From positions 1,085 through 65,084 of the IMG/VR virus record IMGVR_UViG_3300044996_000325: a stretch of DNA of 64,000 nucleotides; one strand, given 5' to 3'. The position numbers and the translations under genes were made by a program. Source of the DNA: a virus (taxonomy: Duplodnaviria; Caudoviricetes). Shown here piece by piece: positions 1,303-63,972 of this stretch (its first letter is position 1; every line of letters starts with the position of its first letter). The notes beneath the pieces were generated by a model that worked only from the letters and a program-made list of their open reading frames with translations, made no database searches and was not told where the DNA came from.

Positions 1303-1359
1303 ATTTCCTCCGTTTCAGGCGTCTGAAAATCCCCCGACGGCGCTCGGGGGATCTCTAGT

Positions 1360-1915
1360 TTAGGCGTGCGTCCAGCCGGCCACCTGCAGTGCGTCATGGA
1401 TGGCGGTGACGTCATCCAGGGTCGCGATGTTGGCCGCGACATATGCCTGGATGGCGGCAAGGATGCCGGCGTCGACAGCAAGGGTATTGAAATTGGTGGC
1501 AAAGTATGCCTTGGCATCATCGAGGACGTCTTCTGCCTCGATGATGTCGTCGAGATTGGCTTCGACGAGCTCCAGCAGGGCCTCTTCGCCGTTTTCGTCT
1601 GCGTAGACTGTGTCGAGGTTGGCCGCCGCCCACGCAACGAGCTTGGCAGTTCCTTCCTCTTCGACGAAGACTTCTTCGGGGGCCTGCTCCGCCGCATACT
1701 CAATGGCTTCTGCGGCGTTGTAGATACTGGCTTCGTCACCGACGAAATCGGTGATCGCAGCCGAGGTGAACACCTGACCGGGGTTCAGGACAGCCGAGAG
1801 GTTCTTCGCGATGCTCTGGGCGTCACCCGTCGGACAGGTGATTTTCGATGACCGTGGGCGACTGCCCGGTCACCAGGCCAATGACCTGAGCGATGGTGCT
1901 TTTTGAAATTGCCAT
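1360..1915 (-). CDS. acidic Ala/Asp/Glu-rich protein split by a +1 frameshift at ~1826
   Basis: GAGGAG RBS and ATG 1915 give MAISKSTIAQ...NHLSDG-stop (1823); the +1 frame continues GDAQSIAKNLSAVLNPGQVFTSAA... into ORF 1360..1773. Confidence 0.65.
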
Positions 1916-1976
1916 TACTTGCTCCTCGAGGATGATTTATCTTGCGGTGCGCCGCCGCAAAATCTGTCGCTCAAGG

Positions 1977-3146
1977 TCAGTCCTTGTAGGGGTCCTCTTC
2001 GCCTTTCCCGGCCATCATGACGACGATCGGCCACAGGCGGGTGCGGATGCGAAGGTTTTCGTGGTATCCGAGGACGGTGCTGAGCCCCCGGTAGGCATTC
2101 GGTGCTTCGTCGGCGCCGCCGCCGTAGAGGTGAACGCCCATCTTTTCGAGATAGACATTCACGTCCTGCATATTGATCAATTTCTTGGCTTGGCTGCGCG
2201 ACATGGTTCGTCCAGCTCCGTGCGGAGCGGAATTGAGAGATGCGTACATCTCCGTTGTTCCGGGAATGGGCTCGACAATGGCGGATATGTCTCCCATGGA
2301 ACCGCCGATGAAGATCGGCTTGTCCCACAGTGGGGTCGCTCCCTTGCGGATCACCCAGTAGTGCTCGCCCTGGATGATCTCGGACCAGGCGAAGTTATGA
2401 TGGTTCGAGATCATCTCTACCGGCTTGGCGCCGAGAATGTCGAGGATGTATTCCACGACCATCTTGCGTCCCAGGGTGGCGTACATGCCAGCGAAACACA
2501 TTGCCTCAAGGTAGTCATCGAACAGCGGCGTGTTCTCTTCGAGCAGCGCTGGCGGCCCATCCATGGTGTCTTTGAAGCCAAGGATCTCCATCGTCTTCCT
2601 GGCGATTTTGTGTCCGAAACCGCGCGATCCGAAGTGGCAAGCCACCCAGACATTCTGGTCCTTGTCGTTCATGATGTCGACGTAGTGGTTTCCGCCGCCA
2701 ATGGTACCTAGCTGTGAGGCTGCGAGCTGTTTCAGGTCCTTCATCAGCGGGTTCTTCCAGTCGATGCCCAGGATTTCTATCTCTCCTTTGTGGAGCGGAG
2801 ACGTAGTCCCGATGCCGAAGACGATCTTCTCGCGGATCTTGGTGACCAGATTGTCGATATCGCCGAGGTCTCGTGGGCGCAGGCTGGTGCGCACCGCATA
2901 GTTTCCACAGCCAATGTCGTAGCCGACACCAGTCGGGGAGATGTGACGAGGATAGGCCACGACGCCGCCGATAGGCATGCGGTAACCTTTGTGCTTGTCG
3001 GCCATGAGGGCTCCAAATGAGCCATCGACGGCATCAAGGCAGGCCCGGATCTGCTGATATACCGGGCTGTTCTTGTAGAAGTTCCCGTCCTCGATGTCAT
3101 CCATCGGGCCAAAAACTGTTAGGTTGGCTTCCTGCACTCGGATCAT
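1977..3146 (-). CDS. rtcB: RtcB family RNA ligase
   Basis: Motifs MADKHKGYRMPIGGV, GYDIGCG, QLGTIGGGNHY, HFGSRG, HHNFA, RKGAT, GSMG, HGAGR, DEAPNAYR. Confidence 0.95.
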   Translation of the reverse strand: MIRVQEANLTVFGPMDDIEDGNFYKNSPVYQQIRACLDAVDGSFGALMADKHKGYRMPIGGVVAYPRHISPTGVGYDIGCGNYAVRTSLRPRDLGDIDNLVTKIREKIVFGIGTTSPLHKGEIEILGIDWKNPLMKDLKQLAASQLGTIGGGNHYVDIMNDKDQNVWVACHFGSRGFGHKIARKTMEILGFKDTMDGPPALLEENTPLFDDYLEAMCFAGMYATLGRKMVVEYILDILGAKPVEMISNHHNFAWSEIIQGEHYWVIRKGATPLWDKPIFIGGSMGDISAIVEPIPGTTEMYASLNSAPHGAGRTMSRSQAKKLINMQDVNVYLEKMGVHLYGGGADEAPNAYRGLSTVLGYHENLRIRTRLWPIVVMMAGKGEEDPYKD

Positions 3147-3294
3147 GAGAACCCCAATTTCTTGTGATCCACGTCACCGTTGCGCTTGAAGATGGTCTTG
3201 AAGATCACGCTGAAGATGCGGAAGATCTTCAATTTCTTGTACCAGATACGAACTTTCGGGTCATACTCGCAGTAGGTAATACGGTCGATGAGCC

Positions 3295-3519
3295 TCATAG
3301 GTTCTCCAGGTATCCGACGACCAGTCCGGGCACTGATCCGTCCAGGGCGGTGATAATGTCCTGCAGGCGGGCTTCGATGGTATTGGCGAGCTCGACTTCA
3401 TTGAAGCCGGCGTTGCGCAGGAATGGAAGGTTTTTCTCGTCGATCTTGATCGTGACGGTGACCGAACCAACCTGCATGCCGTCGATCTCGAACGGGAATT
3501 TCTTGGATCCGGTAGCCAT
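3295..3519 (-). CDS. hypothetical protein
   Basis: MATGSKKFPFEIDG..., TAATG coupling with upstream gene. Confidence 0.55.
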   Translation of the reverse strand: MATGSKKFPFEIDGMQVGSVTVTIKIDEKNLPFLRNAGFNEVELANTIEARLQDIITALDGSVPGLVVGYLENL

Positions 3520-3941: not shown

Positions 3942-3983
3942 ATGCAAATCTCCTTTTCTTGTTGAGTTTCATACGTCTGAAAG

Positions 3984-4910: not shown

Positions 4911-4913
4911 GCT

Positions 4914-6012: not shown

Positions 6013-6671
6013 CTTGGTGCCATCCTTTTTGGTTTCCAGATGTCGCCATCTTGGTGCCATCCTTTCTTGTACATCATTTTCTCGAGAGAGATGACATCGA
6101 GATTGACCTTCTCGCGTGTGGCAACGACGATCATATCTGCGGGAGCTCCCCGGAGAACCCTGCTGATGAGGTCCCAGAACGGCTTGTCCTTGTTCACAAC
6201 TGCCCAGAAGTCATCGTCCGTGAGCTGGTAGCAGAATGGGCAACACAGCCGTTCATCCATACATCCGCCGTTGTCACGCCAGTCATGCCGCTGGCCGATG
6301 AAGTGCCGGCAGCACTCGCATTTTCGTGCGGTGCGGTTTGCTTCTTCCAGGAAATACTCCTGTACGGGCTCTTCGTCCGGGATCTCTTCCGGCCACTCGT
6401 GCTTGAGCTCGATGATGTTTTCTTCGAGCTGGATAAGGGCGTCTTCAGGAAGGTCGTCCAGGAGCTTGATGATCCGACCAGTGACAGGGTAGGTTTCAGG
6501 CGTCGGAAACTTGAACGACCGCAGATCGTCATAGATGCGATTGAGGAGCCGCTGGCATTCCAGGAGCTGTATGGTCTCGTTCAGCGCCGCTGACCTTTCC
6601 CTTGCTGTCGGAAGAAGGCCTTTATCCAGCTTGTCAATGAGGGCATGAACCTTCGAGATCGGTTTCTTCAT
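5952..6671 (-). CDS. hypothetical protein with Cys clusters; C-terminus altered by tandem duplication
   Basis: CECC and CCPFC motifs; AAGGAG RBS. Confidence 0.7.
   Translation of the reverse strand: MKKPISKVHALIDKLDKGLLPTARERSAALNETIQLLECQRLLNRIYDDLRSFKFPTPETYPVTGRIIKLLDDLPEDALIQLEENIIELKHEWPEEIPDEEPVQEYFLEEANRTARKCECCRHFIGQRHDWRDNGGCMDERLCCPFCYQLTDDDFWAVVNKDKPFWDLISRVLRGAPADMIVVATREKVNLDVISLEKMMYKKGWHQDGDIWKPKRMAPRWRHLETKGVKSSWASSPSS
5991..6064. repeat. perfect 37-bp tandem duplication
   Basis: TTTGGTTTCCAGATGTCGCCATCTTGGTGCCATCCTT at 5991-6027 and 6028-6064. Confidence 0.95.
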
Positions 6672-8351: not shown

Positions 8352-8378
8352 GGATCTCTCCTTTTCCGGCGTCTGAAA

Positions 8379-9474: not shown

Positions 9475-9685
9475 AGCTGGTCTCCTTCGATGTTGTCGTC
9501 TCCGTCGTAGAGGTCGACACAAAACCTGCCTTCTTCGGTCCTGGCGGGTCTTTCTGCTCTGATCGGTAGCTTCATGGGTTTCATGGTTCATCTCCAGTTT
9601 CTGGCGTCTGAAACAGCGCCGCCCAAATCAGCGCCGCCTTCCCCCACTCCCATAAGCGAAAACGCCTATATATAGAGAGGGGGGA

Positions 9686-10655: not shown

Positions 10656-11999
10656 CTAGAGTGCCTGGACGAACTTATTGTTGATGTTGAGTTCGGTCAG
10701 CTTGGCCTTGAGGGCCTGGCGCCGACCTTCGGCGAAGTCGATCTCGTTGTTCTTCACCTTGAGGTAGGCGATCGACCAGTCGATCTTGCGACCGTCGGAC
10801 AGGGTGACGCCGACAGGGATACCCTTCACCTGGCGGATGCCCGAGATCTGAACCTTGCGACCGCGCCATTTCTTCCAGGCGATGTCCTGCGCTTCCTTGA
10901 GGGTGGCGCCGCCTGCGACTGCCATCACATAGGCGGTGTTGAACGCCGCAGTCTCGATCGGATTGCGGGCGTTGCTGGGGCATGTGGCGGCCAGCTCATC
11001 CATGAAGCCGGGGTCGATCATGTTCGGATCGGGTTCTTCCTGCGAGCGAGGCTCGTCGTACTCGACCTGCTCGATCTCGTCGCGTGCGTCCAGTTTGAGG
11101 CCGCGCATGCACTTGGCCAGCATGTCGGTCTGCCACTCTTCGTCGTCGTCGATCAGTTCGAGGCGGCGGAGGATGGGGGATGTGTGCGGCTGGAGGCGCA
11201 ACTTCCACTCGTTGCTCCACTCGCTGGCCGGAACGCCGTCCTTCTTCATGCGGGCGATCAGGCGGGCGCGGAGCTGGTTGTACCAGGTGATGAAGCGGCG
11301 CAGTTCGTACTCGTCGTCATCCATGTAGTCCGTCTTGTCCATGAAGATCGGCGGGGTGTAGCCGCGATCGTCGTCGGTAATGGCGATGTTGTCTGCGTCA
11401 GCGTTGAAGCCCAGCTGTGCGGCGATGAACTGCTTGCGGGTTTCTTCGTTCCACCCGAGGTCGGCGGCGGCGATGTTGGAGGACTGCTCCAGCTCCTTGA
11501 CGCTGTCCAGGAGGTTTCCGACGCCGGAAACTTCGTACTCATCTTCCGGAATTTCTTCGCCGGTGTAGCCGTCGACGTAGTCGGGCGTCTCCAGCTCATT
11601 GCTGGGCAGGGTCTGCTCGAGGTAGAGATCTGCAAGGACCTGGCGTGCGTTGTCCGCATCGGCGCCGCCTTCCGCAACGATCATGCGGAGAACGGGGGCG
11701 TACTTGCGGTAGATCATCGCCGGCTTCTCGGCCTTGCTCTGCAGTGCAGAGTAAGCCTGGTCGACGATGCGGGCGTTGATGTTCTCGATCAGTACCATGG
11801 CGTCGGTCTTATAGACCGTGGTCGCCAGAGCCCGCAGTGCGTCGATGATGCCGTTGGCGTAGAAGCCAACCATCGGGGTGTCGGACGCCAGAAGGCGCCG
11901 CACCTGCTCGCAGGTCTGATGCGAGAGGACGGGGGAGACATCTTCGATTGCTCCCATGAGCGTGCCAGTTTCCTGTAACGTAGCAGTGTCACCGTACAT
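10656..11999 (-). CDS. large acidic hypothetical protein
   Basis: ~447 aa from ATG 11999 (AAGGAG RBS); no family recognised. Confidence 0.8.
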   Translation of the reverse strand: MYGDTATLQETGTLMGAIEDVSPVLSHQTCEQVRRLLASDTPMVGFYANGIIDALRALATTVYKTDAMVLIENINARIVDQAYSALQSKAEKPAMIYRKYAPVLRMIVAEGGADADNARQVLADLYLEQTLPSNELETPDYVDGYTGEEIPEDEYEVSGVGNLLDSVKELEQSSNIAAADLGWNEETRKQFIAAQLGFNADADNIAITDDDRGYTPPIFMDKTDYMDDDEYELRRFITWYNQLRARLIARMKKDGVPASEWSNEWKLRLQPHTSPILRRLELIDDDEEWQTDMLAKCMRGLKLDARDEIEQVEYDEPRSQEEPDPNMIDPGFMDELAATCPSNARNPIETAAFNTAYVMAVAGGATLKEAQDIAWKKWRGRKVQISGIRQVKGIPVGVTLSDGRKIDWSIAYLKVKNNEIDFAEGRRQALKAKLTELNINNKFVQAL

Positions 12000-13972: not shown

Positions 13973-13999
13973 GATCTTCTCCTTTTCTGACGTCTGAAA

Positions 14000-15090: not shown

Positions 15091-15110
15091 TCTGTTTCCT
15101 ACGCCTGAAA

Positions 15111-19105: not shown

Positions 19106-20073
19106 ACGAGACGGAGTTACTGCATCAGTCTACCCAGGCAGAGATCGATGCCTGGGAAGATTTTCGGAAGAAATATGAGCGTATGTTTCCGGCGCCTGAA
19201 AAGCCATCCATTACGCTCAGGGATGTGATCGGCTGGCAGTTCTGGATGGCAATCCTGCAGGGCATCTTCGCAATTGCCCTCGCCGCTTTCCGTACTGCCG
19301 ATATGTTCTACAAGATCGCCCTGTCATCGAGCCAGATGTTGGCCGTGCTCGAGGCGTTCTTTGCCGTCGGAGCTGTCGAGGGCGGCATTGTTGTATTCGC
19401 CGCTCTGCGGGCGGAAATGCAGAACCGCAGAACTACTGGAGACGAAAACAGTGACCTCAAACTTGAAGTGCGCGCATCCGTTTGGCGCCTGGCTGCCGGT
19501 GAAATCCTCGGTCTCGCCATCTCGATCGTCGCCGGCCTTGGTCTCTCCTTTGCCGGTCTCGGCATCGATGCAGCCCAGTTCTCTTTCTGGCTGGCTGTTA
19601 TCGTCGGCGCAGGAGCATCGATCATCGCCGCCATCTCCGGAGATGTCATCGGGGCAACCCTCGCCCGCCTTTCCAATGCTCGTGATCGCGTTGGCATACA
19701 ATATCGAGCCGCGATGAAAGACTGGGAAGCGACGCTGTACTCTCGCTGGGCGAAGTCCGACGAACGAGCGATCGCACGCGGAGAGCTGAAGGCAGCTGTT
19801 CGTTCGGGTCGTTCGATACCGAACAGTCGACCGAACAAATACGGCCAAAATCCTGCCGCCGAACGAACCGCCGAACGGCCACCGAACGAACAGAGGGAGC
19901 GTATTATCGCTTATCTTGAGCAATACATGGCTGAACATCCAGAGGCCGAAAGTATTCCTGGGCCATCACAGGTCTCTCGTGATCTTGGAGTGAGCAAGAG
20001 CTACTCTCACCAGGTCCTGAACGACTGGATGGAAGAAAAAGGTTTCGTCGGACAGGAAGGAACCGCTCAGTAG
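19102..20073 (+). CDS. multi-TM protein with C-terminal HTH
   Basis: four hydrophobic helices; GPSQVSRDLGVSKSYSHQVL HTH. Confidence 0.75.
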   Translation: MNETELLHQSTQAEIDAWEDFRKKYERMFPAPEKPSITLRDVIGWQFWMAILQGIFAIALAAFRTADMFYKIALSSSQMLAVLEAFFAVGAVEGGIVVFAALRAEMQNRRTTGDENSDLKLEVRASVWRLAAGEILGLAISIVAGLGLSFAGLGIDAAQFSFWLAVIVGAGASIIAAISGDVIGATLARLSNARDRVGIQYRAAMKDWEATLYSRWAKSDERAIARGELKAAVRSGRSIPNSRPNKYGQNPAAERTAERPPNEQRERIIAYLEQYMAEHPEAESIPGPSQVSRDLGVSKSYSHQVLNDWMEEKGFVGQEGTAQ

Positions 20074-22034: not shown

Positions 22035-22252
22035 AGTACACTTTCAGATGCCTGAAATGCTCAGAGAGGATTGAGGTCGAGCATCGTGTCGATGAGCCTC
22101 ATCCGATAAATCATTCGTGCGGCGGGCGCCTGATCCGCACGTTCGAGCCAGTTGGCATCGTGTTCAGCGGCCCAGGCTTTTATACAACCGATAAACGGGA
22201 GCCGCCGCATGAGATCAATCTACCCCCCATTCCCGCAGACGAAATGGAGTAA
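22031..22252 (+). CDS. FmdB-type zinc ribbon protein
   Basis: MKYTFRCLKC...CGGRLIR...FSGPGFYTTD; GGAGG RBS. Confidence 0.8.
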   Translation: MKYTFRCLKCSERIEVEHRVDEPHPINHSCGGRLIRTFEPVGIVFSGPGFYTTDKREPPHEINLPPIPADEME

Positions 22253-24964: not shown

Positions 24965-24994
24965 TTTCAGACGCCGGAAAGAAGGAAATCAGAA

Positions 24995-29361: not shown

Positions 29362-29425
29362 CCTTTCAACCAGTTTCCGGCGTCTGAAAGGACGCCGGAA
29401 ACACCTTGAATTCTGGAGGATAAAC

Positions 29426-47499: not shown

Positions 47500-47525
47500 G
47501 AGCCTCCAGTTTCAGACGTTGGAAA

Positions 47526-48995: not shown

Positions 48996-49778
48996 TTATT
49001 TCTCCTGTGAACAGATTTCGGTGAACGGACAGTAATTGCAGAGGAAACCTTCCTCTGCGAGCGGGGTGTTGCCACTCTCCAGAGCTGTACTAAGTGCGTC
49101 CCTCCTTTCGATGATCTTATTGACGACTTCATCATGCGGGTAGAGCTGGATTTCGAAGATCACCGCACCAAGGTGAGCTTCGCCGGATGAGGCGCCGCAC
49201 TTCGGGCATGCAAGGATGCCGTCCACCGGCATGTAGGCCCGGTTGCAGCGCTTGCACTTGGTCGGGCCGGACAGATCGATGTACTGAATGGCCGCAGAAG
49301 TGACCGGCATCCCCATCTCGCGCAGGAGTGCCGCATAGATATTGACCTGTTCGATATGGCTGCCGTATGGCAATTTCGACGGCGTCAGCCATCTGGTTGT
49401 CTTGTAGTCCAGGATCCGCCCGTTGTCATAGTAGACGTCAGCACGACCGACGATGCCGAGAGCATCAAGCTCCAGCTCGGCGACGAAGTTCGGGTCCTGG
49501 CGCTCAAGCTTGGAATGAACGGCGGTTCCGAGTTTTCGGACCAGCATCTCGTGGATGAACTCAACCTGCTCCCGGGTGCGGTGGTAGAACGCCTTTCGGA
49601 TGCACCCCGTCAGATCGGTGACGTGAATGCCGGTGCGTTCCGGATCATTCAGGAGGTAGACGAGGAGCGAGTAGTCGTAGCCACACGTGTTGGCTCCCGC
49701 AAGAGCGCAGTTGAGACAGTCGGTTTTTGGCATTACGCCGCGTCCGGCAGAGCAGTTGATCTGTACTATTTCAGGCAT
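48996..49778 (-). CDS. Cas4-like PD-(D/E)XK nuclease
   Basis: DLTGCIRK, GTAVH, GRAD, LDYKT, QVNIY, CNYCPFTEIC; extra CxxC...CxxC insertion. Confidence 0.85.
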   Translation of the reverse strand: MPEIVQINCSAGRGVMPKTDCLNCALAGANTCGYDYSLLVYLLNDPERTGIHVTDLTGCIRKAFYHRTREQVEFIHEMLVRKLGTAVHSKLERQDPNFVAELELDALGIVGRADVYYDNGRILDYKTTRWLTPSKLPYGSHIEQVNIYAALLREMGMPVTSAAIQYIDLSGPTKCKRCNRAYMPVDGILACPKCGASSGEAHLGAVIFEIQLYPHDEVVNKIIERRDALSTALESGNTPLAEEGFLCNYCPFTEICSQEK

Positions 49779-49996
49779 CTGAAACTCCAATCTTTAGGGG
49801 GCGCAAGGTAACCGTGATCACCTTGCGCCTCCCGAATATGATCAGGCCGCGTGGTTTCTTCGTGACCTGGACGAGTGATCGGTAGAACGGCGTCACACGG
49901 TAGTTGTTGATATTGATCTCTTCCAGCACCAGTAAAAGCGCGCCGTTCTCCTCGAGCTTGAGTACCGGTAAGCTACAGAGCCTGAAGGAGCCCTGG

Positions 49997-51370
49997 CTAA
50001 TCGTCAGCGAGAGGAGTGTACGTATTGGTCGCTTTGTCCCACTTGATCGGCTTGCTTTCTCCGACGGGTCCATTGCGGTTTTTGAGGACATAGAGAAGCA
50101 CTCCTACTGCGCGGATATCCCAGTCCTGGGCAAGCACGCGTCGTCCGTTCCGTTCAACCAGGTTCTCGGGGAACTGTGCCAATTGGTTCTGCTCCATCTC
50201 AATGAGGCGGAGAGCCATGGCCACAGTTGCGTCCTGCTCGAGCGACCCCGATCCCTTGAAGTCGGACAGCGTCGGCTTCGAGTTGTTCCCACGCTGGGTG
50301 ATGTCGCGATTGAATTGGGACGCCACCAGTACCGGCACCTTCCACTTCATGTTGAAACCGCGCAGCTGAGACGATGTGTAGCTGATGTTTTGTACCGGAT
50401 CGGTCGACAGGCCCGGGTTCTGGATTTGCTGGACGTAGTCGACGAAGAAAGTCTTGGCTCCGTCGTTGTACGCCTTTTTCATCGCCGCAACGACCTGCTC
50501 GACAGACGGATTACCCATCGTGACAACGCGGATCGGAAGCGACTTGAGGTCCTTGATCGCGTCCTTGGCCTGTACTCTTTCTTCTTCGGTCATCATCGTC
50601 GGCATGCGAAGTTTCTTCGAGTTGATGCCAGTCATAAAGGCGACCAGGTAACGCGGGTAATCGATGTCGCCGTTATCCATATTGATGATCGTGACCGGGG
50701 TTCTTCCACGTGCCGTGAGGAACGCCTCAGCCCGCAGGAACGAGCTCTTACCTTCTCCCGGCCTGGCTCCCAGGATCAGATAGTCCTGATCTTCAAGGTG
50801 GCCAACGATGCGCCGGAAGTCCGGGTTCTTGGGGATGTAGGCTGGCTTGCGTTTTCCAGAGACATAATCGTCGATCGTTGTGTCCAGGATCTCAAGCAGC
50901 TCGGCCATTTCGACGCCCTTGTTGGACTTGGCGCGCCGCATCTCCCACAGGCGCTCTTCTGCCTTATCGAGAACTTCGTCTGCGGGGAGATCTTCCTCGA
51001 GGTCCTTGCTCGTGAGCGCGATGGACATTCGCATGCTTCTGCGGATAGAGGCGTCCACGACCTGGTTGGCATAGTACGACACAGACGACGGGCTTGCTTT
51101 CGAGCACACCATCTCGATGTAGTCGACGCCGACGATCGATCCCAGGTCCTGCCCGAGCGAACTCAGCAGGCCGACGGAGCGGAGCGTTTCCGTCACGGCG
51201 ACCTGGCTGAGTTGCCCGGAAGCTGATAAGGAGGCAACCTTATCCCAGAGGACTTGATTGGAGATGGCACTGAAGTCGGACGGCATCAGGGTTACGTCGA
51301 TATCGCCGATACTTTCAGGCGTCTGAATTACCGACCCGATCAATGCCTGCTCAAAACCAATGGTATCCAT
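49997..51370 (-). CDS. dnaB: DnaB-like replicative helicase
   Basis: FEQALIGS, GARPGEGKS, VDYVQ, SQFNR, SDFKGSGSLEQDA, KNRNGP. Confidence 0.92.
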   Translation of the reverse strand: MDTIGFEQALIGSVIQTPESIGDIDVTLMPSDFSAISNQVLWDKVASLSASGQLSQVAVTETLRSVGLLSSLGQDLGSIVGVDYIEMVCSKASPSSVSYYANQVVDASIRRSMRMSIALTSKDLEEDLPADEVLDKAEERLWEMRRAKSNKGVEMAELLEILDTTIDDYVSGKRKPAYIPKNPDFRRIVGHLEDQDYLILGARPGEGKSSFLRAEAFLTARGRTPVTIINMDNGDIDYPRYLVAFMTGINSKKLRMPTMMTEEERVQAKDAIKDLKSLPIRVVTMGNPSVEQVVAAMKKAYNDGAKTFFVDYVQQIQNPGLSTDPVQNISYTSSQLRGFNMKWKVPVLVASQFNRDITQRGNNSKPTLSDFKGSGSLEQDATVAMALRLIEMEQNQLAQFPENLVERNGRRVLAQDWDIRAVGVLLYVLKNRNGPVGESKPIKWDKATNTYTPLADD

Positions 51371-52228
51371 CTAGGCCCCCAGGAGGCGGCGGATCGACCC
51401 AACGTGCGGCTCGATCTCCGGACGGATATCGGAGATGGTGATATTGGTGTGGCGGTTCGTCAGGCGCTCGAACATCAGGCGCTGGTCTTCGTCCATGCGG
51501 AGGACGGCGAAATACTGATCTCCCTGGCGGATCATGACGCCTTCGAGGTCGGGGGTGTGCGAGGGACGCACCTGGCGCCGCATCTCGCGAACGGGCAATG
51601 TCGTGCCGATCTCGATGAGCCGATCGACGGCATGCTCGACGATCTGATCGCTCGTCGGGCTTTCGATCCCGTCCGCCCGCAGGGCGTTTGTCGACCCCTC
51701 GAGGATTGCCTGGACAGCATCCAGTGTGCTTCCGCGTCCCGGCATCTGTCCAGTGATGATAGCGCTCATGATCGGGACAAGTTCGAACAGTTTGGCCTTG
51801 CCGACGCTGGAGAAGATCTCGGCGACGCTCATGCCGTGCGTTTCAAGATACGGGAAGATGACCGTGCAGAGCGTCTCGATATTGGACAGTTCCGCTGCAG
51901 AGATACCCTGCTCCTGCGCCATCTGGGCAAGCGTCTGGTATCCGCCCGGGTGGACATTCAGGAGGTTCTGGTTGCGGATCTTGGCCAGGATGCGACCGCG
52001 CAAAAGAATGGCAGTCAGGTCGAGAGAGCCGACCAGCTTCAGGGCCTCGACTTCGATGAGTGCGGTGCGCTCAAGCTGCGTCAGGCTGGCGCCGGCAGTC
52101 GGATCTCCTGCGAGACTTGCGTTCAAGTTGCGCTCTGCCGCAGCGTAAATGCTGTTCTGCAGGCCGTTCAGTTCAACCGATAACCCCGCTTCGTAACTCG
52201 GCTGGATCGTGATCTGGTTGTTTGTCAT
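51371..52228 (-). CDS. hypothetical protein in replication module
   Basis: ~285 aa from ATG 52228, GGAGG RBS. Confidence 0.75.
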   Translation of the reverse strand: MTNNQITIQPSYEAGLSVELNGLQNSIYAAAERNLNASLAGDPTAGASLTQLERTALIEVEALKLVGSLDLTAILLRGRILAKIRNQNLLNVHPGGYQTLAQMAQEQGISAAELSNIETLCTVIFPYLETHGMSVAEIFSSVGKAKLFELVPIMSAIITGQMPGRGSTLDAVQAILEGSTNALRADGIESPTSDQIVEHAVDRLIEIGTTLPVREMRRQVRPSHTPDLEGVMIRQGDQYFAVLRMDEDQRLMFERLTNRHTNITISDIRPEIEPHVGSIRRLLGA

Positions 52229-52242: not shown

Positions 52243-52707
52243 TCAAAATGGGAATTGGATAACGAACGCCGAGTGGCCGATAGGCATCCGGGGTTTGTGC
52301 AGGATGAGTGACGTCGTTCCGTCTGGCCTGTTCTCTTTTGTCCACTCGTCCATGTGAAAGAAGTAATCTGCCACCATGTCCGAGCCTTCTTCTAGCTCCC
52401 GGTATCGGAATTCTTCTCCGAAGCCGAACTCACTCAGGTGGTCTTTCAGATGGCATAGGCGAAACGCCACCAATCTTATGTCTCTTGCCGGGAGAATGAG
52501 GAGCTCGTACTGCTGCGGAAAAGCCATCTTCGGAACCTGCTTTCTCGACTTGACATCGATGACGTATCCGAGCTCGTTGATCTCGATGTCTGGTCCCGTT
52601 CTGCCGAGCACCGGGATGCGCTTGACGGGGGAGTATCCGGCGTCTGAAAATGTATTGCTGAGGAATTCTGCTACTGATCTCTCTACGGACCTGGGTCGTG
52701 CTTTCAT
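52243..52707 (-). CDS. PD-(D/E)XK Holliday-junction-resolvase-like protein
   Basis: ERSVAEFL...GPDI...IDVKSRK. Confidence 0.65.
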   Translation of the reverse strand: MKARPRSVERSVAEFLSNTFSDAGYSPVKRIPVLGRTGPDIEINELGYVIDVKSRKQVPKMAFPQQYELLILPARDIRLVAFRLCHLKDHLSEFGFGEEFRYRELEEGSDMVADYFFHMDEWTKENRPDGTTSLILHKPRMPIGHSAFVIQFPF

Positions 52708-53042
52708 AGGGTCTCCCCCAGGGCGTCCCAGATGTCGCCAGCTACTGGCGTGCTCTTTTCCTTCTCGGCAGCCGCCTCTACTGTTCTGCTCAATTGCTGG
52801 CGAAGGCGGTAGATGTATACGGCCTCAACGCTCTTGACGGTCTGCGGATTGACATCCTTCATGGATGCGAGGATGGCTGCCTGGCAGTTTTCGCACTTCT
52901 TCGTGCATAGACCCCTGTTGGTCATCGGTTTGCACCATGTATGTCCGGTGATCCTGATGGCGTCCGTCTTGTAGATGAAACCAACCTTCTTCAATTCGTC
53001 GTCGGGAACGATCTTTGCGAAGCGGTACTTATTGATCTTCAT
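52704..53042 (-). CDS. hypothetical Cys-containing protein, first gene of leftward replication operon
   Basis: HTWC...CTKKCENC. Confidence 0.65.
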   Translation of the reverse strand: MKINKYRFAKIVPDDELKKVGFIYKTDAIRITGHTWCKPMTNRGLCTKKCENCQAAILASMKDVNPQTVKSVEAVYIYRLRQQLSRTVEAAAEKEKSTPVAGDIWDALGETL

Positions 53043-53205: not shown

Positions 53206-53616
53206 ATGCTAAAGGATGTTTTGCAAGGAGCAATGCGCTCACGTGGGATGAGCACGCGTGAAGCTGCCCGAGAAATCGGTATCTCTCATACCACTGTTTT
53301 CAGAGTGATAAAGGGAGACCCGTTTGATGTCGATACGCTTATTGCAATAGCGAACTGGCTCAAGGTGCGTCCGTCAACTCTCCTTGACAGCCTGGCGCGT
53401 TCTGATACAATAGGCGACCTATCACTTCTGATCGAGAGATATCCGGGTATTTTGGATGTGCTAAAACAGGCGTCGGTGGCTGTCAACCAGGGAGCCGCTT
53501 CTCAGGAGATCCTGGTCGACATTCTCTCCTATGCCCTGTACAAACTCTCTCTTAGAGGTGATAAAGATGGACCGTCCACTAAGTCAGGAGGAAAAGAGAC
53601 TTCTGAAGCTCGTTGA
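53206..53616 (+). CDS. XRE-family HTH repressor
   Basis: MSTREAAREIGISHTTVFRVIKG...TLIAIANWL; divergent from replication operon. Confidence 0.8.
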   Translation: MLKDVLQGAMRSRGMSTREAAREIGISHTTVFRVIKGDPFDVDTLIAIANWLKVRPSTLLDSLARSDTIGDLSLLIERYPGILDVLKQASVAVNQGAASQEILVDILSYALYKLSLRGDKDGPSTKSGGKETSEAR

Positions 53617-54501: not shown

Positions 54502-54750
54502 TTACAGCTTGGCCATCTTGATTTCAGACGCCGGAAAGTAGATCGGGTCTACTGCGCCGACGGCAACGATCTTGACACCAGTCCTCTTGCTCATCCTGAC
54601 CAGCTTTCTCTTCGCGGTGTCTGGTATGACACCGAGGATCCTGGCGAGTTCACTTCTCGATCTCGGTAGGAGGGACCTGATCAGCTGGTCTTCGAAGGTT
54701 CCGGAGGCCATCGGGTTGAAGGTGAAGCTCACTTCTACCTTGTAGCTCAT
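54502..54750 (-). CDS. small HTH-like protein
   Basis: RSELARILGVIPDTAKRKL. Confidence 0.6.
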   Translation of the reverse strand: MSYKVEVSFTFNPMASGTFEDQLIRSLLPRSRSELARILGVIPDTAKRKLVRMSKRTGVKIVAVGAVDPIYFPASEIKMAKL

Positions 54751-56639: not shown

Positions 56640-56666
56640 ATCGGTTTCCTTTCCGGCGTCTAAAAG

Positions 56667-58111: not shown

Positions 58112-59002
58112 ATGAAGATCGTCGGCGCTGTCGAAAGCTATCTTTCAGCCTGCCATGCGGAAAACCACAGTCCCAGGACCGAGCGGTCCTACAAGGATGT
58201 CCTGAACGACTTTGTTTCAGGCGTCGGAAACATCAACATCGAGGACCTGACGCCGGAGACGATCAACGCTTACATGGGTGGGCTCTCTGCTCGACCAGGA
58301 AAGCGTGGCCAGTTCTCCAGCCATTCAATGGCCAAGTACTACGCCGTCATCCGTTCCTTCGTGCGCTGGCTGTACGACCGGCGGTTCATCAGGGAGCGGA
58401 TCACGGACTTCACCAGTGCGCCGCGTGTCTCCGGAGATCTGCCAAAGGCGCTCACCGATGAAGAGGTGAAGAGATTGCTTGACCATGTATCGGGAGATTT
58501 CAGGGATCTCGTTATCATGGAGCTTTTCCTGGACACGGGCCTCCGGTTGAACGAGGTCTGTGCTCTCGATCTGAAGGATGTCCATGTTCAGGGAGCGTGG
58601 TGCCGCGTGTACGGGAAAGGCCGCAAGGAAGCGATCGTTCCTCTCGGCAGGAAGCTCTGCAGGGACTTGTCGATCTACATTCATGCACATCGCAAGCCCA
58701 CCTACCAGGATGAGCCGGCGCTCTTTATCAACCGGTTTGGTCACCGGCTAGAGAGAGAGGGCCTGGCCATCCTGGTCAGGCGAGCGCTTGCGAACATCGG
58801 GATCGAGGGAAAACACGGCGCCCATACGCTGCGCCACACCTTTGCGACAAATTTCCTTCGCAACGGCGGGTCACTTGAGGCGCTGCGCCGTATCCTGCGC
58901 CACAACGATATCAAGGTGACACAGAGATACATTCACCTGGTCATGGATGATGTTATTGGGCAGCATCACCAGGCGTCCCCGTTGGATCATATGAGAAAAT
59001 GA
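58112..59002 (+). CDS. int: tyrosine recombinase/integrase (XerC/D-like)
   Basis: DTGLRLNE (R), GKGRK (K), HTLRHTFAT (HxxR), LRH, TQRY (Y); probably leaderless after TGcTATGAT at 58097-58105. Confidence 0.92.
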   Translation: MKIVGAVESYLSACHAENHSPRTERSYKDVLNDFVSGVGNINIEDLTPETINAYMGGLSARPGKRGQFSSHSMAKYYAVIRSFVRWLYDRRFIRERITDFTSAPRVSGDLPKALTDEEVKRLLDHVSGDFRDLVIMELFLDTGLRLNEVCALDLKDVHVQGAWCRVYGKGRKEAIVPLGRKLCRDLSIYIHAHRKPTYQDEPALFINRFGHRLEREGLAILVRRALANIGIEGKHGAHTLRHTFATNFLRNGGSLEALRRILRHNDIKVTQRYIHLVMDDVIGQHHQASPLDHMRK

Positions 59003-59806
59003 TCAGTAGGGGATCCAGATGCCGGGCTCTTCAACGTTTTTCACGTCGTAGCCTGGCAGCGTGTCCAGATACTCCATAAAGTTGCTGAAGTCTTCAGGAT
59101 CGTCGTTCTCGTGGGCCTCGATATGCATATAGCGGGTGTACAGATGGTCGAGAACCTCGTTGGTAAGCATCTTGGGGTCCGGCGCTGTCACAACCCACGG
59201 GGCATACTCGCCGTCACGGTTGTCGAAGTGAGAACGGTGAACGTAGTCCGGAACCAGGACGCGGGCGTATTCGTTGGGAAGGCCTCCCTTGAAGCCCTTC
59301 TTTTTGAACTTTTCAAGCATCGCCCGAATGGGATCGACGCCGGCCCTCTCGGCGAACTTTGTGAGCATCATCAGCACGTCGCCGATCTCGCCGGCAACGT
59401 CGTCGCTCTTATTCTCCGGGTTGTTGCGAACCCACTTGGACTGTGTATGAACGAACCTGTCAGCAAGCTCCCCAATTTCAGACGTCAGAAACAGCAGTGC
59501 CTGCGTGGCATCTGGGTCAGCATACCCCCGGAACTGAAAGTATTCATTCACTACCACTCGGAGGTCGAGGCTGGCGACTTCGCCACGGCCTGCGGGCTGT
59601 GCCATGTCCTCACGGACGGGGACCATGAAGCTCCCTGTACTTTTGATGTGGGCTTGTAGAGCGCTCAGGATACCGCCGATGATGCGATAAGCGGCGCGAT
59701 CGCCGTCGTTTTCGTTGTCGACGGTATCGTCGAGCCAGTTGAATACCTCTTCAAGATCCTTGTACGTCAGCCGCTCCGGGGGAAAGAAGGTGTTTGCGTT
59801 GCTCAT
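59003..59806 (-). CDS. MazG-like NTP pyrophosphohydrolase domain protein
   Basis: LTSEIGELAD...VAGEIGDVL (ExxE...ExxD). Confidence 0.75.
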   Translation of the reverse strand: MSNANTFFPPERLTYKDLEEVFNWLDDTVDNENDGDRAAYRIIGGILSALQAHIKSTGSFMVPVREDMAQPAGRGEVASLDLRVVVNEYFQFRGYADPDATQALLFLTSEIGELADRFVHTQSKWVRNNPENKSDDVAGEIGDVLMMLTKFAERAGVDPIRAMLEKFKKKGFKGGLPNEYARVLVPDYVHRSHFDNRDGEYAPWVVTAPDPKMLTNEVLDHLYTRYMHIEAHENDDPEDFSNFMEYLDTLPGYDVKNVEEPGIWIPY

Positions 59807-60775: not shown

Positions 60776-61755
60776 TTCATCCACTCCTTGATTGTGGGTA
60801 TGGCTGTATCGGGCTCTGCCCGCACCCAGTCATCGATGTCTTTGAACTGCTCCGGTGGAGTTCTCAGCTCAGCATGAAGCAGGTCGGCGCGGAGCTTGGC
60901 GTACTTCATGATCTTGGCACGGACATCCTCAGATGGATCGTTGTCTGCGACCAGGATGCGCTTTGGAGAAAGCGAGAGCTGCACATACCAGGTGCCGGCA
61001 TCGGCCCAGATATTCTCCGAGACTGTCGGTGCGCACACCTTGATACCGTACTGATGCAGGAGCATGCAGGGGATCTCGCTCTTTACAACCAGGACCGGTT
61101 CGGTAATGTCGCGGATCGAGTTGAGATTGAACAGCGACCCAACGGAGCCTTTCTCGTTGATAAAGCGGTGGCGGTGCGCGGCGCCGGGATCCATGTTGCG
61201 CATCTTGATCCCCATCAGCCTCTCCCGGTCAAAGGATGGCATCGTCATCCACCGGGAGTGCTCGGTCTGCTTCTCGCCGAGGCGGAAGAAGTCGACTGTC
61301 TCGCGCAACAAGCCCCTGGTGGCTGCGTATTGGTAGACGGTTTCAGACGTCTGATACTGTTTCCAGAGGTCGTTCGGGAGACCGAATGGATTGGGCTTCT
61401 CGATCTGGATGGGCGAGATCTTGTATCCGCCATTCAGGATCGACAGTGCACGTCGAATGTGGTCCGGGTCCTTGTCGTTGTATCCTGGGATCTTCATGTA
61501 CCCAACCAGGTCGATGACATCTCCCTGCTTTCCACATGCGCCGTGGCATTTCCACTCCTGCCCATCCCTTCCCTGAAAAATGGAAAAGGACGGAGTTTGG
61601 TGCTGGTGCGGGTGGAAAGGGAGGGGGCAGACGATCACCTTCTTGTTGCTTGACACCTGCAGGACGTCGCGGACATCGTAGAGCCTACGAGCATCCCTGA
61701 TCGAGCCACCTGCGGTATTTTTCGGCCATCGTCTTGATGTCGTCGTCCTCGTCAT
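60772..61755 (-). CDS. DNA primase (CHC2 Zn finger plus Toprim-like)
   Basis: CPLPFH...TPSF...CHGAC...GDVIDLV, ATRGL, ADND, FKDIDDW; GAGGAG RBS before ATG 61755. Confidence 0.85.
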   Translation of the reverse strand: MTRTTTSRRWPKNTAGGSIRDARRLYDVRDVLQVSSNKKVIVCPLPFHPHQHQTPSFSIFQGRDGQEWKCHGACGKQGDVIDLVGYMKIPGYNDKDPDHIRRALSILNGGYKISPIQIEKPNPFGLPNDLWKQYQTSETVYQYAATRGLLRETVDFFRLGEKQTEHSRWMTMPSFDRERLMGIKMRNMDPGAAHRHRFINEKGSVGSLFNLNSIRDITEPVLVVKSEIPCMLLHQYGIKVCAPTVSENIWADAGTWYVQLSLSPKRILVADNDPSEDVRAKIMKYAKLRADLLHAELRTPPEQFKDIDDWVRAEPDTAIPTIKEWMK

Positions 61756-61933
61756 AGTCGCACTCCTCGCAGCTTCTTGAGCGAATTGAATGGGATGAGT
61801 TGCATACCGGGCACTCTTCAGGCCAGTTGTCCATGTCAAAAACCTTGTGGTCCAGGACGATTTCGTCAGACATGTCGGCGGCGACCAGGCCTCCGTGGAC
61901 GAGGGCGTAGGTCATGACTTTATGCTTTGCCAT
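61685..61933 (-). CDS. Zn-ribbon hypothetical protein
   Basis: CPVC...CEEC, GGAGG RBS. Confidence 0.6.
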   Translation of the reverse strand: MAKHKVMTYALVHGGLVAADMSDEIVLDHKVFDMDNWPEECPVCNSSHSIRSRSCEECDYDEDDDIKTMAEKYRRWLDQGCS

Positions 61934-61941
61934 CTTGCCTC

Positions 61942-62169
61942 CTAAAACATTTGAGCTTGCTTATTGAACTGGTTCAAGGCACGCTTGATGTACGGAACAT
62001 CCAGCTCATGGGCACGCACGACCATCGTGTGATTGAAGGCGGCGTAGTATTTTCGGTGCTTGCTCGGAACATCGTTGCGGAAGCGTTCCCAGTCTGCCTT
62101 CTGCTCTGCATGGCTCCCGCTGATGATCACCTTGACTTTGTGCGGTGATACAGCAATTGCGTCGATCAT
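61942..62169 (-). CDS. hypothetical protein (HARP-like pattern)
   Basis: FRNDVPSKHRKYYAAFNHTMVV; coupled to ThiF stop. Confidence 0.55.
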   Translation of the reverse strand: MIDAIAVSPHKVKVIISGSHAEQKADWERFRNDVPSKHRKYYAAFNHTMVVRAHELDVPYIKRALNQFNKQAQMF

Positions 62170-62828
62170 AGGTTGTAGACCTCCAGGCGGTCCATCTTGA
62201 TGTTGTGGTACACAAACTTGGAGTGCTGCTCGCCGCGCAGGATATCGCGTACTGCCTTGCCGATGTGGCCGGCAGCGATGCAGGCGGTGTAGATGGTTGC
62301 CTTCTCGGTGCAGACGACGTCGGGAACATTTTTCTCGTCTTCCTCGGAGATCATGCGGTCGTAGCCATGAAAGCCGGTATCTTCCAGGTCCATGTTCACG
62401 ATGTAGAGGTGGAAGATCTCGGCGGACATGCGGGCATCCAGGTACCAGCCGCGGCATGTCTTCTTCACAGCTTCCCAGATCTGTTTGCGCGCCGTGATAC
62501 TGTCCACTGCAGAGATGACAATGTCATCATCGAGCAGCGTATTCTCGTCGACGCGCTCCTGAACGATCTGCGGCAGCGCTTCGTCAGAAAAGAGCATCGT
62601 CTGTCCGGCAAGCGCTTCCGCCTTGTTGGTGTGCACACTGCCGACCGTATGGAACTGGGTTGGGAGGTTGACGTTGTCGACCCTGTCATCATCGAAAATC
62701 GTCAGGAAACGAACACCCATCTTTGCCAGGGTGATCCCGGTGATGGCGCCGATCCCACCAGCCCCAATCAACCCGATCCGCATGGTCGGTGGTACGGTAA
62801 AGATCCCCATATGTCGAGTGTGGTCCAT
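62166..62828 (-). CDS. ThiF/E1-like adenylyltransferase
   Basis: IGAGGIG, DDDRVDNVNLPTQ, SAVDSITAR, DARM, candidate catalytic Cys in VCTEKATIY. Confidence 0.88.
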   Translation of the reverse strand: MDHTRHMGIFTVPPTMRIGLIGAGGIGAITGITLAKMGVRFLTIFDDDRVDNVNLPTQFHTVGSVHTNKAEALAGQTMLFSDEALPQIVQERVDENTLLDDDIVISAVDSITARKQIWEAVKKTCRGWYLDARMSAEIFHLYIVNMDLEDTGFHGYDRMISEEDEKNVPDVVCTEKATIYTACIAAGHIGKAVRDILRGEQHSKFVYHNIKMDRLEVYNL

Positions 62829-63307
62829 TATTCCTCCTGTCCTTGTCTTGTCTGGATCGCCCGTTGAAGAACTTCGGCAAGCGAGTGATGGTTTATTTGT
62901 TCGAGATCCTCGAATACGTCATCGATATCCTCTGCAGTTGCGTGGCGTCCGTTCATCTTGTGCCAGGAATGGCTGAACCGAAGCATTTCGGGAGGATCGT
63001 CTGGATACGCTTGCTGCATGAGCTCCATGTAATCCAAGTCGTAGATCATGCAGAGATCGTGAACGTGAGCAAGGATGCCATTTTCGCTTGTCTCATACTT
63101 TGGGGTCCATGTCTCTCGCTCATTCTCTTCGATGCTGAAAACCAACACGAAGTCAGACCGAACGGGGTGAAGACCGCTACCTGGCATATGAATGTGTGCG
63201 CGCCTCTTGATCCTTTTGGCCTCGCGCCTCCATGCCCTCATTGCGTACTCGTCTAGATGTCTATTAGTCTTGACGTACTTCCCATCAATGAGCTCGACGA
63301 TTTTCAT
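62828..63307 (-). CDS. hypothetical protein
   Basis: 159 aa between JAB and ThiF genes; LEQINHHS motif. Confidence 0.65.
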   Translation of the reverse strand: MKIVELIDGKYVKTNRHLDEYAMRAWRREAKRIKRRAHIHMPGSGLHPVRSDFVLVFSIEENERETWTPKYETSENGILAHVHDLCMIYDLDYMELMQQAYPDDPPEMLRFSHSWHKMNGRHATAEDIDDVFEDLEQINHHSLAEVLQRAIQTRQGQEE

Positions 63308-63309
63308 AG

Positions 63310-63972
63310 CTACTCCCTGGAGAGTTCCATCTGCCGGGAGGAAGGTAGATCGTATTCGGGATCATCCCAGCCATCGAGTTCTTCCTCATCTTCATCGAAA
63401 TACGAGGCCATCTCCCTGTGGCGCTGCTCGTACATGCGCTTCTCGAAGTCGGCGTACATGATCCTGGTCAGGCTGTCGAGATTGTTTTCCTTCTTGTACA
63501 CGCGCGCCAGCTTGACGATCTCATTGGATGGAGTGCGGTGCTCCACGGGTACATCGAACTGCACCAACTTCGGGACAAAGAACGACAACTTTCCGATCCA
63601 TCCCATCGGCGTATGAACGATCGCGAGTGCCCACTGCATGATCTCTGGAATTCCGCCACACGGAGTATGGGTCATGGTGAACATATCGGTTCCAGACCAT
63701 CCGGTGATCGGATGCTTGTGGAACCAGCAGCGCCGGCTTCCAGTTTCAGACGCCGGAAGCTGAATGATCTTGTCTGGATCGAATTCCGTGTATCCAACGC
63801 TTCCGACATCCATAACGTGAGGAGCGGATACCAGGAAGTTGCCGTTGCTTCGGACGACGTCGGCCAGTCCAGAGAATTCATGAGAGAAATCCCTGGTCCT
63901 TGTTGCCATGACCCATGCGGTCAGAATGACTTCTGTCTGGGGTTCAAAGATGATCTTCATTTTTTCTCCCAT
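63310..63972 (-). CDS. JAB/MPN metalloprotease-like protein
   Basis: HEFSGL (E)...WFHKHP (HxH)...WSGTD (SxxD). Confidence 0.75.
   Translation of the reverse strand: MGEKMKIIFEPQTEVILTAWVMATRTRDFSHEFSGLADVVRSNGNFLVSAPHVMDVGSVGYTEFDPDKIIQLPASETGSRRCWFHKHPITGWSGTDMFTMTHTPCGGIPEIMQWALAIVHTPMGWIGKLSFFVPKLVQFDVPVEHRTPSNEIVKLARVYKKENNLDSLTRIMYADFEKRMYEQRHREMASYFDEDEEELDGWDDPEYDLPSSRQMELSRE

Follow-up and report, generated by a model that had tools for sequence, protein, structure and literature searches.

A phage-family grid of dyad-symmetric DNA sites and its candidate readers

What is a 16-bp palindrome doing 27 times in one phage genome, both in the gaps between genes and inside the genes themselves? 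The question is raised by a stretch of 64,000 bases (hereafter, the window) out of the 65,084 bases of a Caudoviricetes virus record in IMG/VR, IMGVR_UViG_3300044996_000325, which is rated 82% complete. An earlier description made from the letters of this DNA (the sequence-only reading) had noticed an array of 26 copies, and suggested either a silencing system of the kind known as stoperators or a grid that marks, compacts or segregates the phage genome. We find that the copies, 27 by our count, are real and selected, that they are a feature of double-stranded DNA, and that the motif belongs to a phage family and is not a host-wide signature. Going by the symmetry of the word, a paired, phage-encoded DNA-binding protein most likely docks at the copies. 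Our tentative choice for this protein is the homodimer of p285, which would act during lytic growth; among the readings weighed here it is the one that we prefer, and we hold it with reserve.

The word, its symmetry and its placement

The pattern TTTCNGRCGYCNGAAA matches the window exactly 14 times, first at 1313 and last at 59476, and it matches nowhere in any of 100 dinucleotide shuffles. When up to one mismatch is allowed there are 27 matches (14 plus 13) between 1313 and 63759 (Table 1), compared to a mean of 0.07 and a maximum of 2 in the shuffles. The sequence-only reading had the 14 exact copies right and, with 12 one-mismatch copies, was one short of the total. In a weight matrix the 27 sites score 21.6–30.7 bits, the next position in the window reaches 8.2 and the best of 20 shuffles 14.6 (the matrix was built from the sites themselves, making the comparison circular). 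The range between 21.6 and 8.2 bits is empty; that is, there are no decaying or half copies. Moreover, the window has 16 instances of the half-site TTTCAGAC, which equals the count within the sites. The flanking bases weakly lengthen the dyad to 20 bp (A-G before, C-T after), and AGTTTCAGACGCCGGAAACT is an example of the type of site. A second motif put forward by the sequence-only reading, TGTCACAGAT, was rejected: it has 6 matches at up to one mismatch where 4.2 are expected, and 26 of 100 shuffles reach 6.

Sixteen of the copies lie inside genes, some of them more than 900 nt from any gene boundary, according to our own simple self-trained gene caller, on which all in-gene and intergenic counts rest. 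Synonymous-codon shuffles (300 runs) give 0.90 in-gene matches on average and 3 at most. The in-gene copies use all three reading frames (10, 4 and 2 copies) and encode different peptides, with the frame preserved. The genes concerned include those for the integrase, DnaB, a primase-like protein and tail proteins, as had been noted, and neither the dinucleotide nor the codon shuffles explain the counts. Where the sequence-only reading had counted ten intergenic copies, our gene calls give nine that are fully intergenic, against 6% expected (P=2e-5), and 11 that are at least partly so. Almost half of the copies (48%) fall within 60 nt of a gene boundary, compared to 22% of random positions. Five directly adjoin a stop codon, with 0 nt between the copy and the end of the gene (8363, 13984, 15095, 24965 and 47510), also as first described, and four of these (8363, 13984, 24965 and 47510) are directly followed by a ribosome-binding site (RBS) and an ATG.

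The spacing of the copies is even. Gaps between them average 2401 nt (minimum 895, maximum 6663) with a coefficient of variation (CV) of 0.51, and just 0.005% of 20,000 random placements are as even (P=5e-5), in agreement with the 'fairly even' spacing first reported. Even spacing is also seen in two relatives introduced below, G001 (CV 0.55, P=8e-4) and G008 (CV 0.67, P=0.013).

The copies are not promoters. Promoter-like sites were scanned over 40 kb (positions 1–20000 and 44001–64000), and none that scores at least 10/12 overlaps any copy. In particular, the strong sigma70-like sites at 17823–17863 (on both strands), 5840–5868, 53087–53115 and 53138–53165 are free of copies. The earlier statement that no copy overlaps a sigma70 promoter stands at this threshold; below it, two 9/12 matches, at chance level, overlap the copies at 52634 and 54522. 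The sites at 17823–17863 are placed back to back between the two arms of the genome, score 11/12 each and have no grid site, and they likely mark where the structural operon and one early operon begin. A bidirectional terminator with a 13-bp stem (46986–47016) marks the convergence of the arms. Beside it, a minus-strand open reading frame (ORF; 47020–47499), with its RBS and ATG right after the copy at 47510, gets a coding score, and two relatives have homologues of it; the plus-strand ORF that overlaps it (47047–47484) is probably not a gene.

Could the copies work in RNA? A hairpin or protein site in polycistronic messenger RNA, controlling processing, termination or the translation of the next gene, would fit the five sites in stop-to-RBS gaps, the GC hairpins beside the copies at 1313 and 15095, and the weak sense-strand bias of the central hexamer (13 vs 5). 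Against such an element, pairing is not kept: positions 5 and 12 are complementary in 9 of the 27 sites, where 13.2 are expected for independent halves, and positions 7 and 10 are alike (complementary) in 8 of the 27, where 14.2 are expected, i.e. fewer than chance. Because the halves differ at positions 7 and 10, mixed GACGCC/GGCGTC centres are favoured over the symmetric GACGTC or GGCGCC. An RNA hairpin is not preserved when the halves vary independently at positions 5 and 12, as the sequence-only reading had argued; in addition, 16 of the 27 copies lie inside genes and a single-stranded reader gives no reason for the dyad. We consider an RNA-level element extremely unlikely. Dyad symmetry together with half-sites that vary independently points to a dimer on double-stranded DNA, also the earlier conclusion.

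At one copy, half of the grid site is repeated downstream, giving a predicted hairpin with an 11-bp stem and a 6-nt loop (29374–29404) just after the 354-aa gene, which may act as a terminator or attenuator.

Table 1. Copies of the dyad word and genes of the early module in the window (CDS, coding sequence; a strand given as '.' means that none is assigned)
Feature	Coordinates	Strand	Match	Context
Site	1313..1328	.	exact	Between genes; gene 826-1302 (minus) starts 10 nt downstream; GC hairpin adjoins
Site	3967..3982	.	1 mismatch	Intergenic
Site	6494..6509	.	exact	Within CDS 5952-6671
Site	8363..8378	.	exact	Stop codon, site, RBS, ATG in order
Site	9598..9613	.	exact	Intergenic
Site	11515..11530	.	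exact	Within CDS 10656-11999
Site	13984..13999	.	exact	Stop codon, site, RBS, ATG in order
Site	15095..15110	.	1 mismatch	Abuts stop of 15111-15395; GC hairpin adjoins at 15070-15091
Site	19186..19201	.	exact	Within CDS 19102-20073
Site	22042..22057	.	1 mismatch	Just past gene downstream of terminase; site near here in 4/4 whole genomes
Site	24965..24980	.	exact	Junction of the 253-aa and 223-aa head genes, ordered stop, site, RBS, ATG
Site	29374..29389	.	exact	12 nt past 354-aa gene; same junction in 3/4 genomes
Site	36037..36052	.	exact	Within 1174-aa tail gene
Site	36932..36947	.	1 mismatch	Within 1174-aa tail gene
Site	40414..40429	.	exact	Within CDS 39480-41531
Site	42614..42629	.	1 mismatch	Within CDS 42449-43585
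Site	45631..45646	.	1 mismatch	Within CDS 44935-46047
Site	47510..47525	.	1 mismatch	Stop, site, RBS, ATG on minus strand
Site	49769..49784	.	1 mismatch	Start of Cas4-like nuclease gene; site at or just upstream of that start in 4/4 genomes
Site	51313..51328	.	1 mismatch	42 nt into dnaB; p285 stop lies 43 nt upstream
Site	52634..52649	.	1 mismatch	58 nt into p154 gene; identical offset in G001 prophage
Site	54522..54537	.	exact	Near 3' end of CDS 54502-54750
Site	56650..56665	.	1 mismatch	1 nt from end of gene 56667-56849
Site	58215..58230	.	exact	103 nt into integrase gene
Site	59476..59491	.	exact	Within CDS 59003-59806
Site	61341..61356	.	1 mismatch	Within primase-like gene 60772-61755
Site	63744..63759	.	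1 mismatch	Within CDS 63310-63960
DnaB-type helicase gene	49997..51370	-		Downstream of p285
p285	51371..52228	-		Best candidate binder; 285 aa, directly upstream of dnaB
p154, small PD-(D/E)XK nuclease-like protein	52243..52707	-		GPD...DVK motif
p112, conserved Cys4 protein	52704..53042	-		First gene of early operon, Cro position
XRE-family helix-turn-helix protein	53206..53616	+		Own sigma70-like promoter at 53138-53165; second candidate binder

A family of phages and its probable hosts

All eight runs in which the window is listed are DNA contigs of lake-water metagenomes, none of them RNA, and they diverge too little to show constraint over the 432 bp of its grid sites. The window has no close relatives among the GenBank phages by DNA or single-protein search, nor by a single-sequence pattern scan of IMG/VR, and its commonest exact 16-mer occurs once in each of five unrelated viral contigs. 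At the protein level, 208 relatives of the large terminase are present in the protein collection, p154 likewise has hundreds of metagenomic relatives, and by terminase alignment we gathered 62 terminase-anchored loci (52 viral and 10 genome loci, 884 kb). The window's own pattern, at up to one mismatch, has 84 matches in 38 of the 62 loci, and its reversed control has 1. Loosened to a family pattern, NTTNNGRYRYCNNAAN, the search gives 208 matches vs 5 for the reversed control in the same loci, 41 of which contain at least two.

Relatives at ~50–58% terminase identity carry 18–29 copies of a variant of their own. The half-site is TTTCCG in the G001 prophage (26 copies), G007 (22 copies) and G008 (29 copies), CTTTCG in the contig-6 prophage of G003 (22 copies), TTTTCG in a contig of G004 (18 copies) and [C/G]TTCAG in the 50-kb G011 (27 copies). 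Whole-genome site tables compare four genomes, and the further arrays were counted in additional relatives. In all four genomes, sites lie at or near the same three places: past the end of the gene that follows the terminase gene, the junction of the 253-aa and 223-aa head genes, and at or just upstream of where the Cas4-like gene starts. At the head junction (24965 in the window) three of the four have the site in the junction itself, and in the fourth it is 39 nt inside the called start of the next gene. Some copies share gene junctions between genomes that are only ~50% identical in protein.

The phage is temperate, judging by the integrase gene in the window and by relatives that sit integrated in contigs of metagenome-assembled genomes (MAGs). 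Its hosts are probably Chloroflexota bacteria; eight of the ten genome loci come from Chloroflexota, Chloroflexia or Anaerolineae MAGs, and the phage itself is uncultured. These MAGs show where the motif stops. In G001, a 5.2-Mb Chloroflexia MAG, all 12 exact matches and 26 of the 30 one-mismatch matches fall in a 52-kb prophage (C11:145–197.5 kb). In G003, 20 of the 26 matches to its own variant are within the contig-6 prophage, and the same MAG holds part of a second related prophage with the variant TTTCCG. The equal density across host DNA that a host signature would show was not found, in line with the earlier view of a phage system.

Two further observations concern relatives. On contig 4 of G003 (162–169 kb), three one-mismatch matches to the CTTTCG variant lie within 6.5 kb and may represent a third related element in that MAG. 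In another relative (L116, 3620–3780), four tandem units of ~40–55 bp with the dyad TCGCA-N9-TGCGA look like an iteron cluster.

Might the array nevertheless be a host signature (an uptake sequence or a REP-like repeat), a mobile mini-element or an accident of composition? The half-site ending CGTCTGAA resembles the Neisseria uptake sequence, an idea that is ruled out by host genomes which lack the motif outside their prophages. Shuffles give 0–2 matches, the in-gene copies keep the frame, and junctions are shared between genomes ~50% identical, all of which speak against chance or a mini-element. The probability that we give to this group of explanations is negligible. A host protein as binder, which the sequence-only reading had allowed for, is also unlikely since the motif is nearly absent from host DNA (only 4 of 30 one-mismatch matches lie outside the prophage in 5.2 Mb). 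A phage-encoded reader fits better than a host factor because the variants are lineage-specific, with two different ones in the single host genome G003.

Candidate readers in the early module

Which phage protein, then, could read the sites? An early and replication module is conserved throughout the family: the XRE protein (divergent), p112, p154, p285, DnaB, the Cas4-like nuclease and an AAA_24/Sak4-like protein. Of the four phage candidates named by the sequence-only reading, the small helix-turn-helix (HTH) protein at 54502 and the winged HTH protein at 55421 have homologues in none of eight relatives, and just two of the eight have a homologue of the protein at 19102. The XRE protein (53206) is conserved and stays a candidate. 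The protein that we rank first, p285 (285 aa, encoded at 51374–52228), was not on that list. We place it there because it is conserved, is predicted to form a dimer, has a shape like ParB's DNA-binding domain (DBD), belongs with a motif core like that of parS and of the Noc-binding site (NBS), and shows a residue switch that matches the motif.

p285 was found in all six relatives whose sequence covers the region, and in 34 of the 70 sources examined, most of the others being short contigs. Its AlphaFold2 model (predicted local distance difference test, pLDDT, 88) is helical over residues 14–220 and has a C-terminal beta hairpin and HTH-like motifs. The best structural matches are ParB–parS complexes: 4umk_C (Z 6.8, root-mean-square deviation 3.7, 115 residues aligned), 6t1f_D (Z 6.7, 2.6, 109 aligned) and 6s6h_A (Z 5.7). 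Spo0J (1vz0) scores Z 5.8 and the KorB DNA-binding domain (1r71) Z 4.5, and the top rows of a Foldseek search are P1 ParB–DNA structures (E 0.08–0.2). By sequence, p285 has no significant match in the Protein Data Bank (PDB) and no PHROG family. A homodimer prediction gives a score of 0.66 compared to 0.00 for the best control, with runs that agree in at least 75% of contacts and a partner pLDDT of at least 78. This mark is reached by 20 of 30 proteins solved as one-chain pairs and by 1 of 23 solved as single chains, and, as a prediction, the model supports pairing of p285 as a symmetric homodimer.

The residue switch emerges when genomes are compared. Twenty distinct genomes were sorted into the classes CA, TC and CC according to the pair of bases that follows TT in the half-site. 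In p285, the residue after a conserved 'LS', in the helix that follows the G-I-S turn of the first HTH-like motif, is N in all four CA genomes and Q in all five TC genomes. The 11 CC genomes are divided, with six carrying D, three N and two Q, and D occurs only with TTTC-C. The TC class (TTT-T-CG) has at least two origins on the p285 tree. This column has a permutation p of 0.0013 and ranks 6th of 610 variable columns in four proteins. In our own motif alignment, G-x-S-x5-N of p285 is spaced like G170, S172 and N178 of Caulobacter ParB, which an excerpt of PMC7383237 lists among the parS contacts.

Several points weigh against this reading. The Z scores of p285 are all below 8, a range common for helical proteins, and the Rubisco-assembly factor Raf1 scores alike. 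Pfam detects no ParB, KorB or HTH_ParB domain in 23 members of the p285 family, the only match being HHH_9 in 7 of the 23, and the HTH_ParB model, which finds the host ParBs in four of five host genomes, does not find the prophage copies of p285. An hhalign comparison of p285 with host ParBs has a probability of 2.3% and aligns an IGKS motif, not the HTH-like motif that covaries, so the covarying motif is only a candidate for the DNA-reading helix of p285. Three XRE columns and two other p285 columns covary with the motif as well as or better than the p285 residue. Covariation is thus suggestive and does not single out p285, and shared ancestry of the module can give such patterns. Residue-to-base leads are also fragile, because one for the XRE protein failed once more genomes were added. 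At the level of the array, spacing in G007 is no more even than random under a stricter site filter (CV 0.90, P=0.40), and the gene caller behind the placement counts is crude. Finally, the lytic timing is read from gene position only.

With these points in mind, the p285 homodimer on double-stranded DNA remains our preferred reader, and its action would run as follows. p285, weakly similar to the DNA-binding domain of ParB or KorB and without a CTPase domain, would bind each copy as a dimer, each half reading one half-site, A-G-TTTC-[A/C]-G-R-C. The array would be maintained at ~1 site per 2–2.5 kb over the whole genome, with sites placed in short gaps between genes where possible and otherwise written into long genes. 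The grid would mark or organise replicating phage DNA, or recruit replication and recombination machinery at many places, and would not silence the prophage. Lytic growth is the likely setting because p285 lies downstream of the repressor-controlled early promoter. A more specific form of the idea, in which parS-like sites are read by a clamp-less, ParB-DBD-like dimer encoded next to DnaB that marks the DNA or loads the helicase at ~27 places, we regard as doubtful. The ParB_N/CTPase domain has no match anywhere in the 65-kb record (82% complete), and no ParA was seen among the ~60 window proteins that the family scans covered.

The strongest competitor among the conserved proteins is the XRE protein, probably the immunity repressor. 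In a stoperator-like silencing system, its dimer, made in the lysogen, would bind all 27 sites and block or silence prophage transcription, as the sequence-only reading had suggested. The protein is conserved in seven of eight relatives examined and is SinR/HipB-like, and HTH proteins of this kind dimerise on palindromic sites. Like the motif core, the recognition helix of the XRE protein (x-H-T-T-x-x-R) hardly varies within the family, and the association with the motif variant is as strong for three of its columns as for any column of p285. The phage is temperate, and the distribution of sites resembles that of the stoperators in the excerpted text of PMC4351075. The divergent XRE/early-promoter region, where an immunity repressor should act, nevertheless has promoter-like sites and no grid copy in 8 of 8 genomes. 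The nearest copy is at -70 to +168 relative to the start of p154, the second or third gene of the operon, and at least 340 bp downstream of the promoter-like sites. In the Cluster A mycobacteriophages, the stoperator sequence also serves as the early-promoter operator, a feature that is missing here. The sites are also symmetric, with a weak orientation trend (13 vs 5). Moreover, a first lead for the XRE protein, in which residue 2 (H) of the recognition helix tracked an outer base T, held in seven genomes and failed with L129 (H, base C). The case for silencing is weakened, and we now think it unlikely.

The relative G002 bears on several candidates at once. On its contig 12 (L083–L087, ~402–421 kb), an element of ~19 kb has genes for a holin-like protein, an HNH/TerS-like protein, TerL, the XRE protein, p112 and p154. 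It is without head, tail, p285 and DnaB genes and holds only two degenerate grid sites, as might be expected either of a prophage in decay or of something satellite-like. It keeps the XRE protein without the grid, which speaks against silencing. With p285 and the grid both missing it fits p285 as the reader, an argument of little weight since the element looks degraded.

In the window, the first 150 residues encoded at 18359–19105 correspond to a separate gene of ~170 aa in relatives (48–55% identity). An HNH motif sits in the C-terminal extension, so the product looks like a small-terminase-like domain fused to HNH.

A different reader altogether (p112, some other protein of the phage, or one that Chloroflexota hosts conserve) would be compatible with a case for p285 that is indirect. 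p112 holds the Cro position across the family, and many of the small early proteins have no family match. It is a protein of ~110 aa with the cysteine pattern YC-x-P-M...C...C-x2-4-C and a C-terminal N-P-F, found at the same position in ~30 related loci. The window copy of p112 has no DNA-binding fold recognisable by Pfam, and a host factor is opposed by the near absence of the motif from host DNA and by the lineage variants described above. On balance, some other reader is improbable.

The sites could also be targets of a nuclease or nickase. p154, as a dimeric PD-(D/E)XK enzyme, would then make regular nicks or breaks, for example to start recombination-dependent replication. p154 belongs to the same conserved module, and it has a restriction-endonuclease-like motif, E...GRTGPD...DVKSR, whose E...GPD...DVK residues are invariant in 7 of 7 sequences. 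Its leads in the atlas are PDDEXK_15 and Holliday-junction-resolvase clusters (score 0.92, TM 0.62), and a PDB profile search gave one weak match (E 0.007), a protein with no assigned function. Restriction-endonuclease-like enzymes act on palindromes as dimers, and the central GRCGYC is built like a type II restriction site. It would be unusual, however, for a phage to be rich in sites that its own enzyme cleaves, and G002 keeps p154 without the grid. When part of a replication module, a small PD-(D/E)XK protein is usually a structure-specific resolvase, and p154 is probably the phage's junction resolvase. We judge nuclease sites to be very unlikely.

Comparison with known systems

The general background to such sites includes the conserved inverted repeats of phiC31, the C1 operators of P1, the dispersed centromeres of N15, the 12 OB sites of RK2, the operator layout of HipB and the nicks of T5. 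The comparisons that follow draw on excerpts of published accounts. Repeated elements have preceded their binders before. SPBRE, of the Bacillus prophage SPbeta, was predicted in silico decades before its binder MrpR, a master repressor, was found by chromatin affinity precipitation sequencing in 2023 (PMC10516654). The grid is like SPBRE in being a repeated prophage element predicted ahead of a known binder. Unlike the grid, SPBRE has only 9 peaks, which are located in intergenic promoter regions, its reader MrpR has a tyrosine-recombinase fold, and it shows neither an even grid nor in-gene copies (PMC10516654).

Stoperators of the Cluster A phages are similar in that a temperate phage carries dozens of scattered repressor-type sites, often within short gaps. 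Theirs are asymmetric and oriented with transcription, in contrast to the symmetric sites here (PMC4351075). Cluster EG Microbacterium phages have a conserved 18-bp inverted repeat in short gaps upstream of gene starts, kept, as here, in diverged relatives; unlike the grid, it has 8–10 copies, which are start-associated and at one genome end (PMC7302621).

As for the protein, ParB–parS, Noc–NBS and KorB–OB offer the nearest parallels, with 13–16-bp palindromes read by an HTH dimer (PMC7383237, PMC11790492). The half-site core TTTC[A/C] is common to published parS and NBS sequences. KorB has several sites per replicon and, as a clamp that uses cytidine triphosphate (CTP), reaches promoters 1.5 kb from its sites, an acting distance close to the grid spacing here (PMC11790492). 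The grid differs from ParB–parS in that its TTTC blocks are 4 bp further apart, p285 is without ParB_N/CTPase and no ParB-family sequence model matched it.

The closest published analogue of the array, as a likeness, is the dyad repeat of the Cluster O mycobacteriophages (Corndog and relatives, with Ryadel as a further reference, PMC6439249). Dispersed dyad-symmetric phage repeats have been described since at least 2015 (PMC4351075). The Cluster O repeat is a 17-bp dyad, TGTTCGG-N3-CCGAACA, with 34 copies in Corndog, of which 14 fall between genes, 10 close to gene starts and 10 within genes. It shows no link to promoters, its predicted binder is dimeric, and its function is given as unknown (PMC4351075). 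In both cases a dyad word of 16–17 bp is repeated ~30 times through a siphovirus genome of ~65–70 kb, with a mixture of intergenic, start-proximal and in-gene copies that is not tied to promoters (~40% of the Cluster O copies are intergenic and a third in-gene). On the other hand, the word and the host phylum differ, and, in the excerpted account, Cluster O is not obviously temperate and its copies are denser at one end. Since the terminase, p154 and p285 of the window have no tblastn match in 50,697 GenBank phage records, the likeness is one of kind, not of descent. The excerpts of PMC4351075 and PMC7302621 give no binder or function for the Cluster O and Cluster EG arrays.

New here are an array conserved at about half terminase identity, a word that drifts by lineage, spacing that is statistically even, and the absence of the motif from host DNA. 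Also new is a short list of conserved candidate readers, with p285 first and the XRE protein second. Should p285 prove to be the reader, it would exemplify a DNA-binding domain of ParB-like type that works in the absence of the clamp domain. If such a clamp-less, ParB-like grid exists, a large and wholly uncultured family of temperate Chloroflexota phages would have a virus-specific DNA-marking system rather than a repressor network. Together with the Cluster O dyad arrays, it would then point to a widespread, undescribed layer of phage genome organisation.

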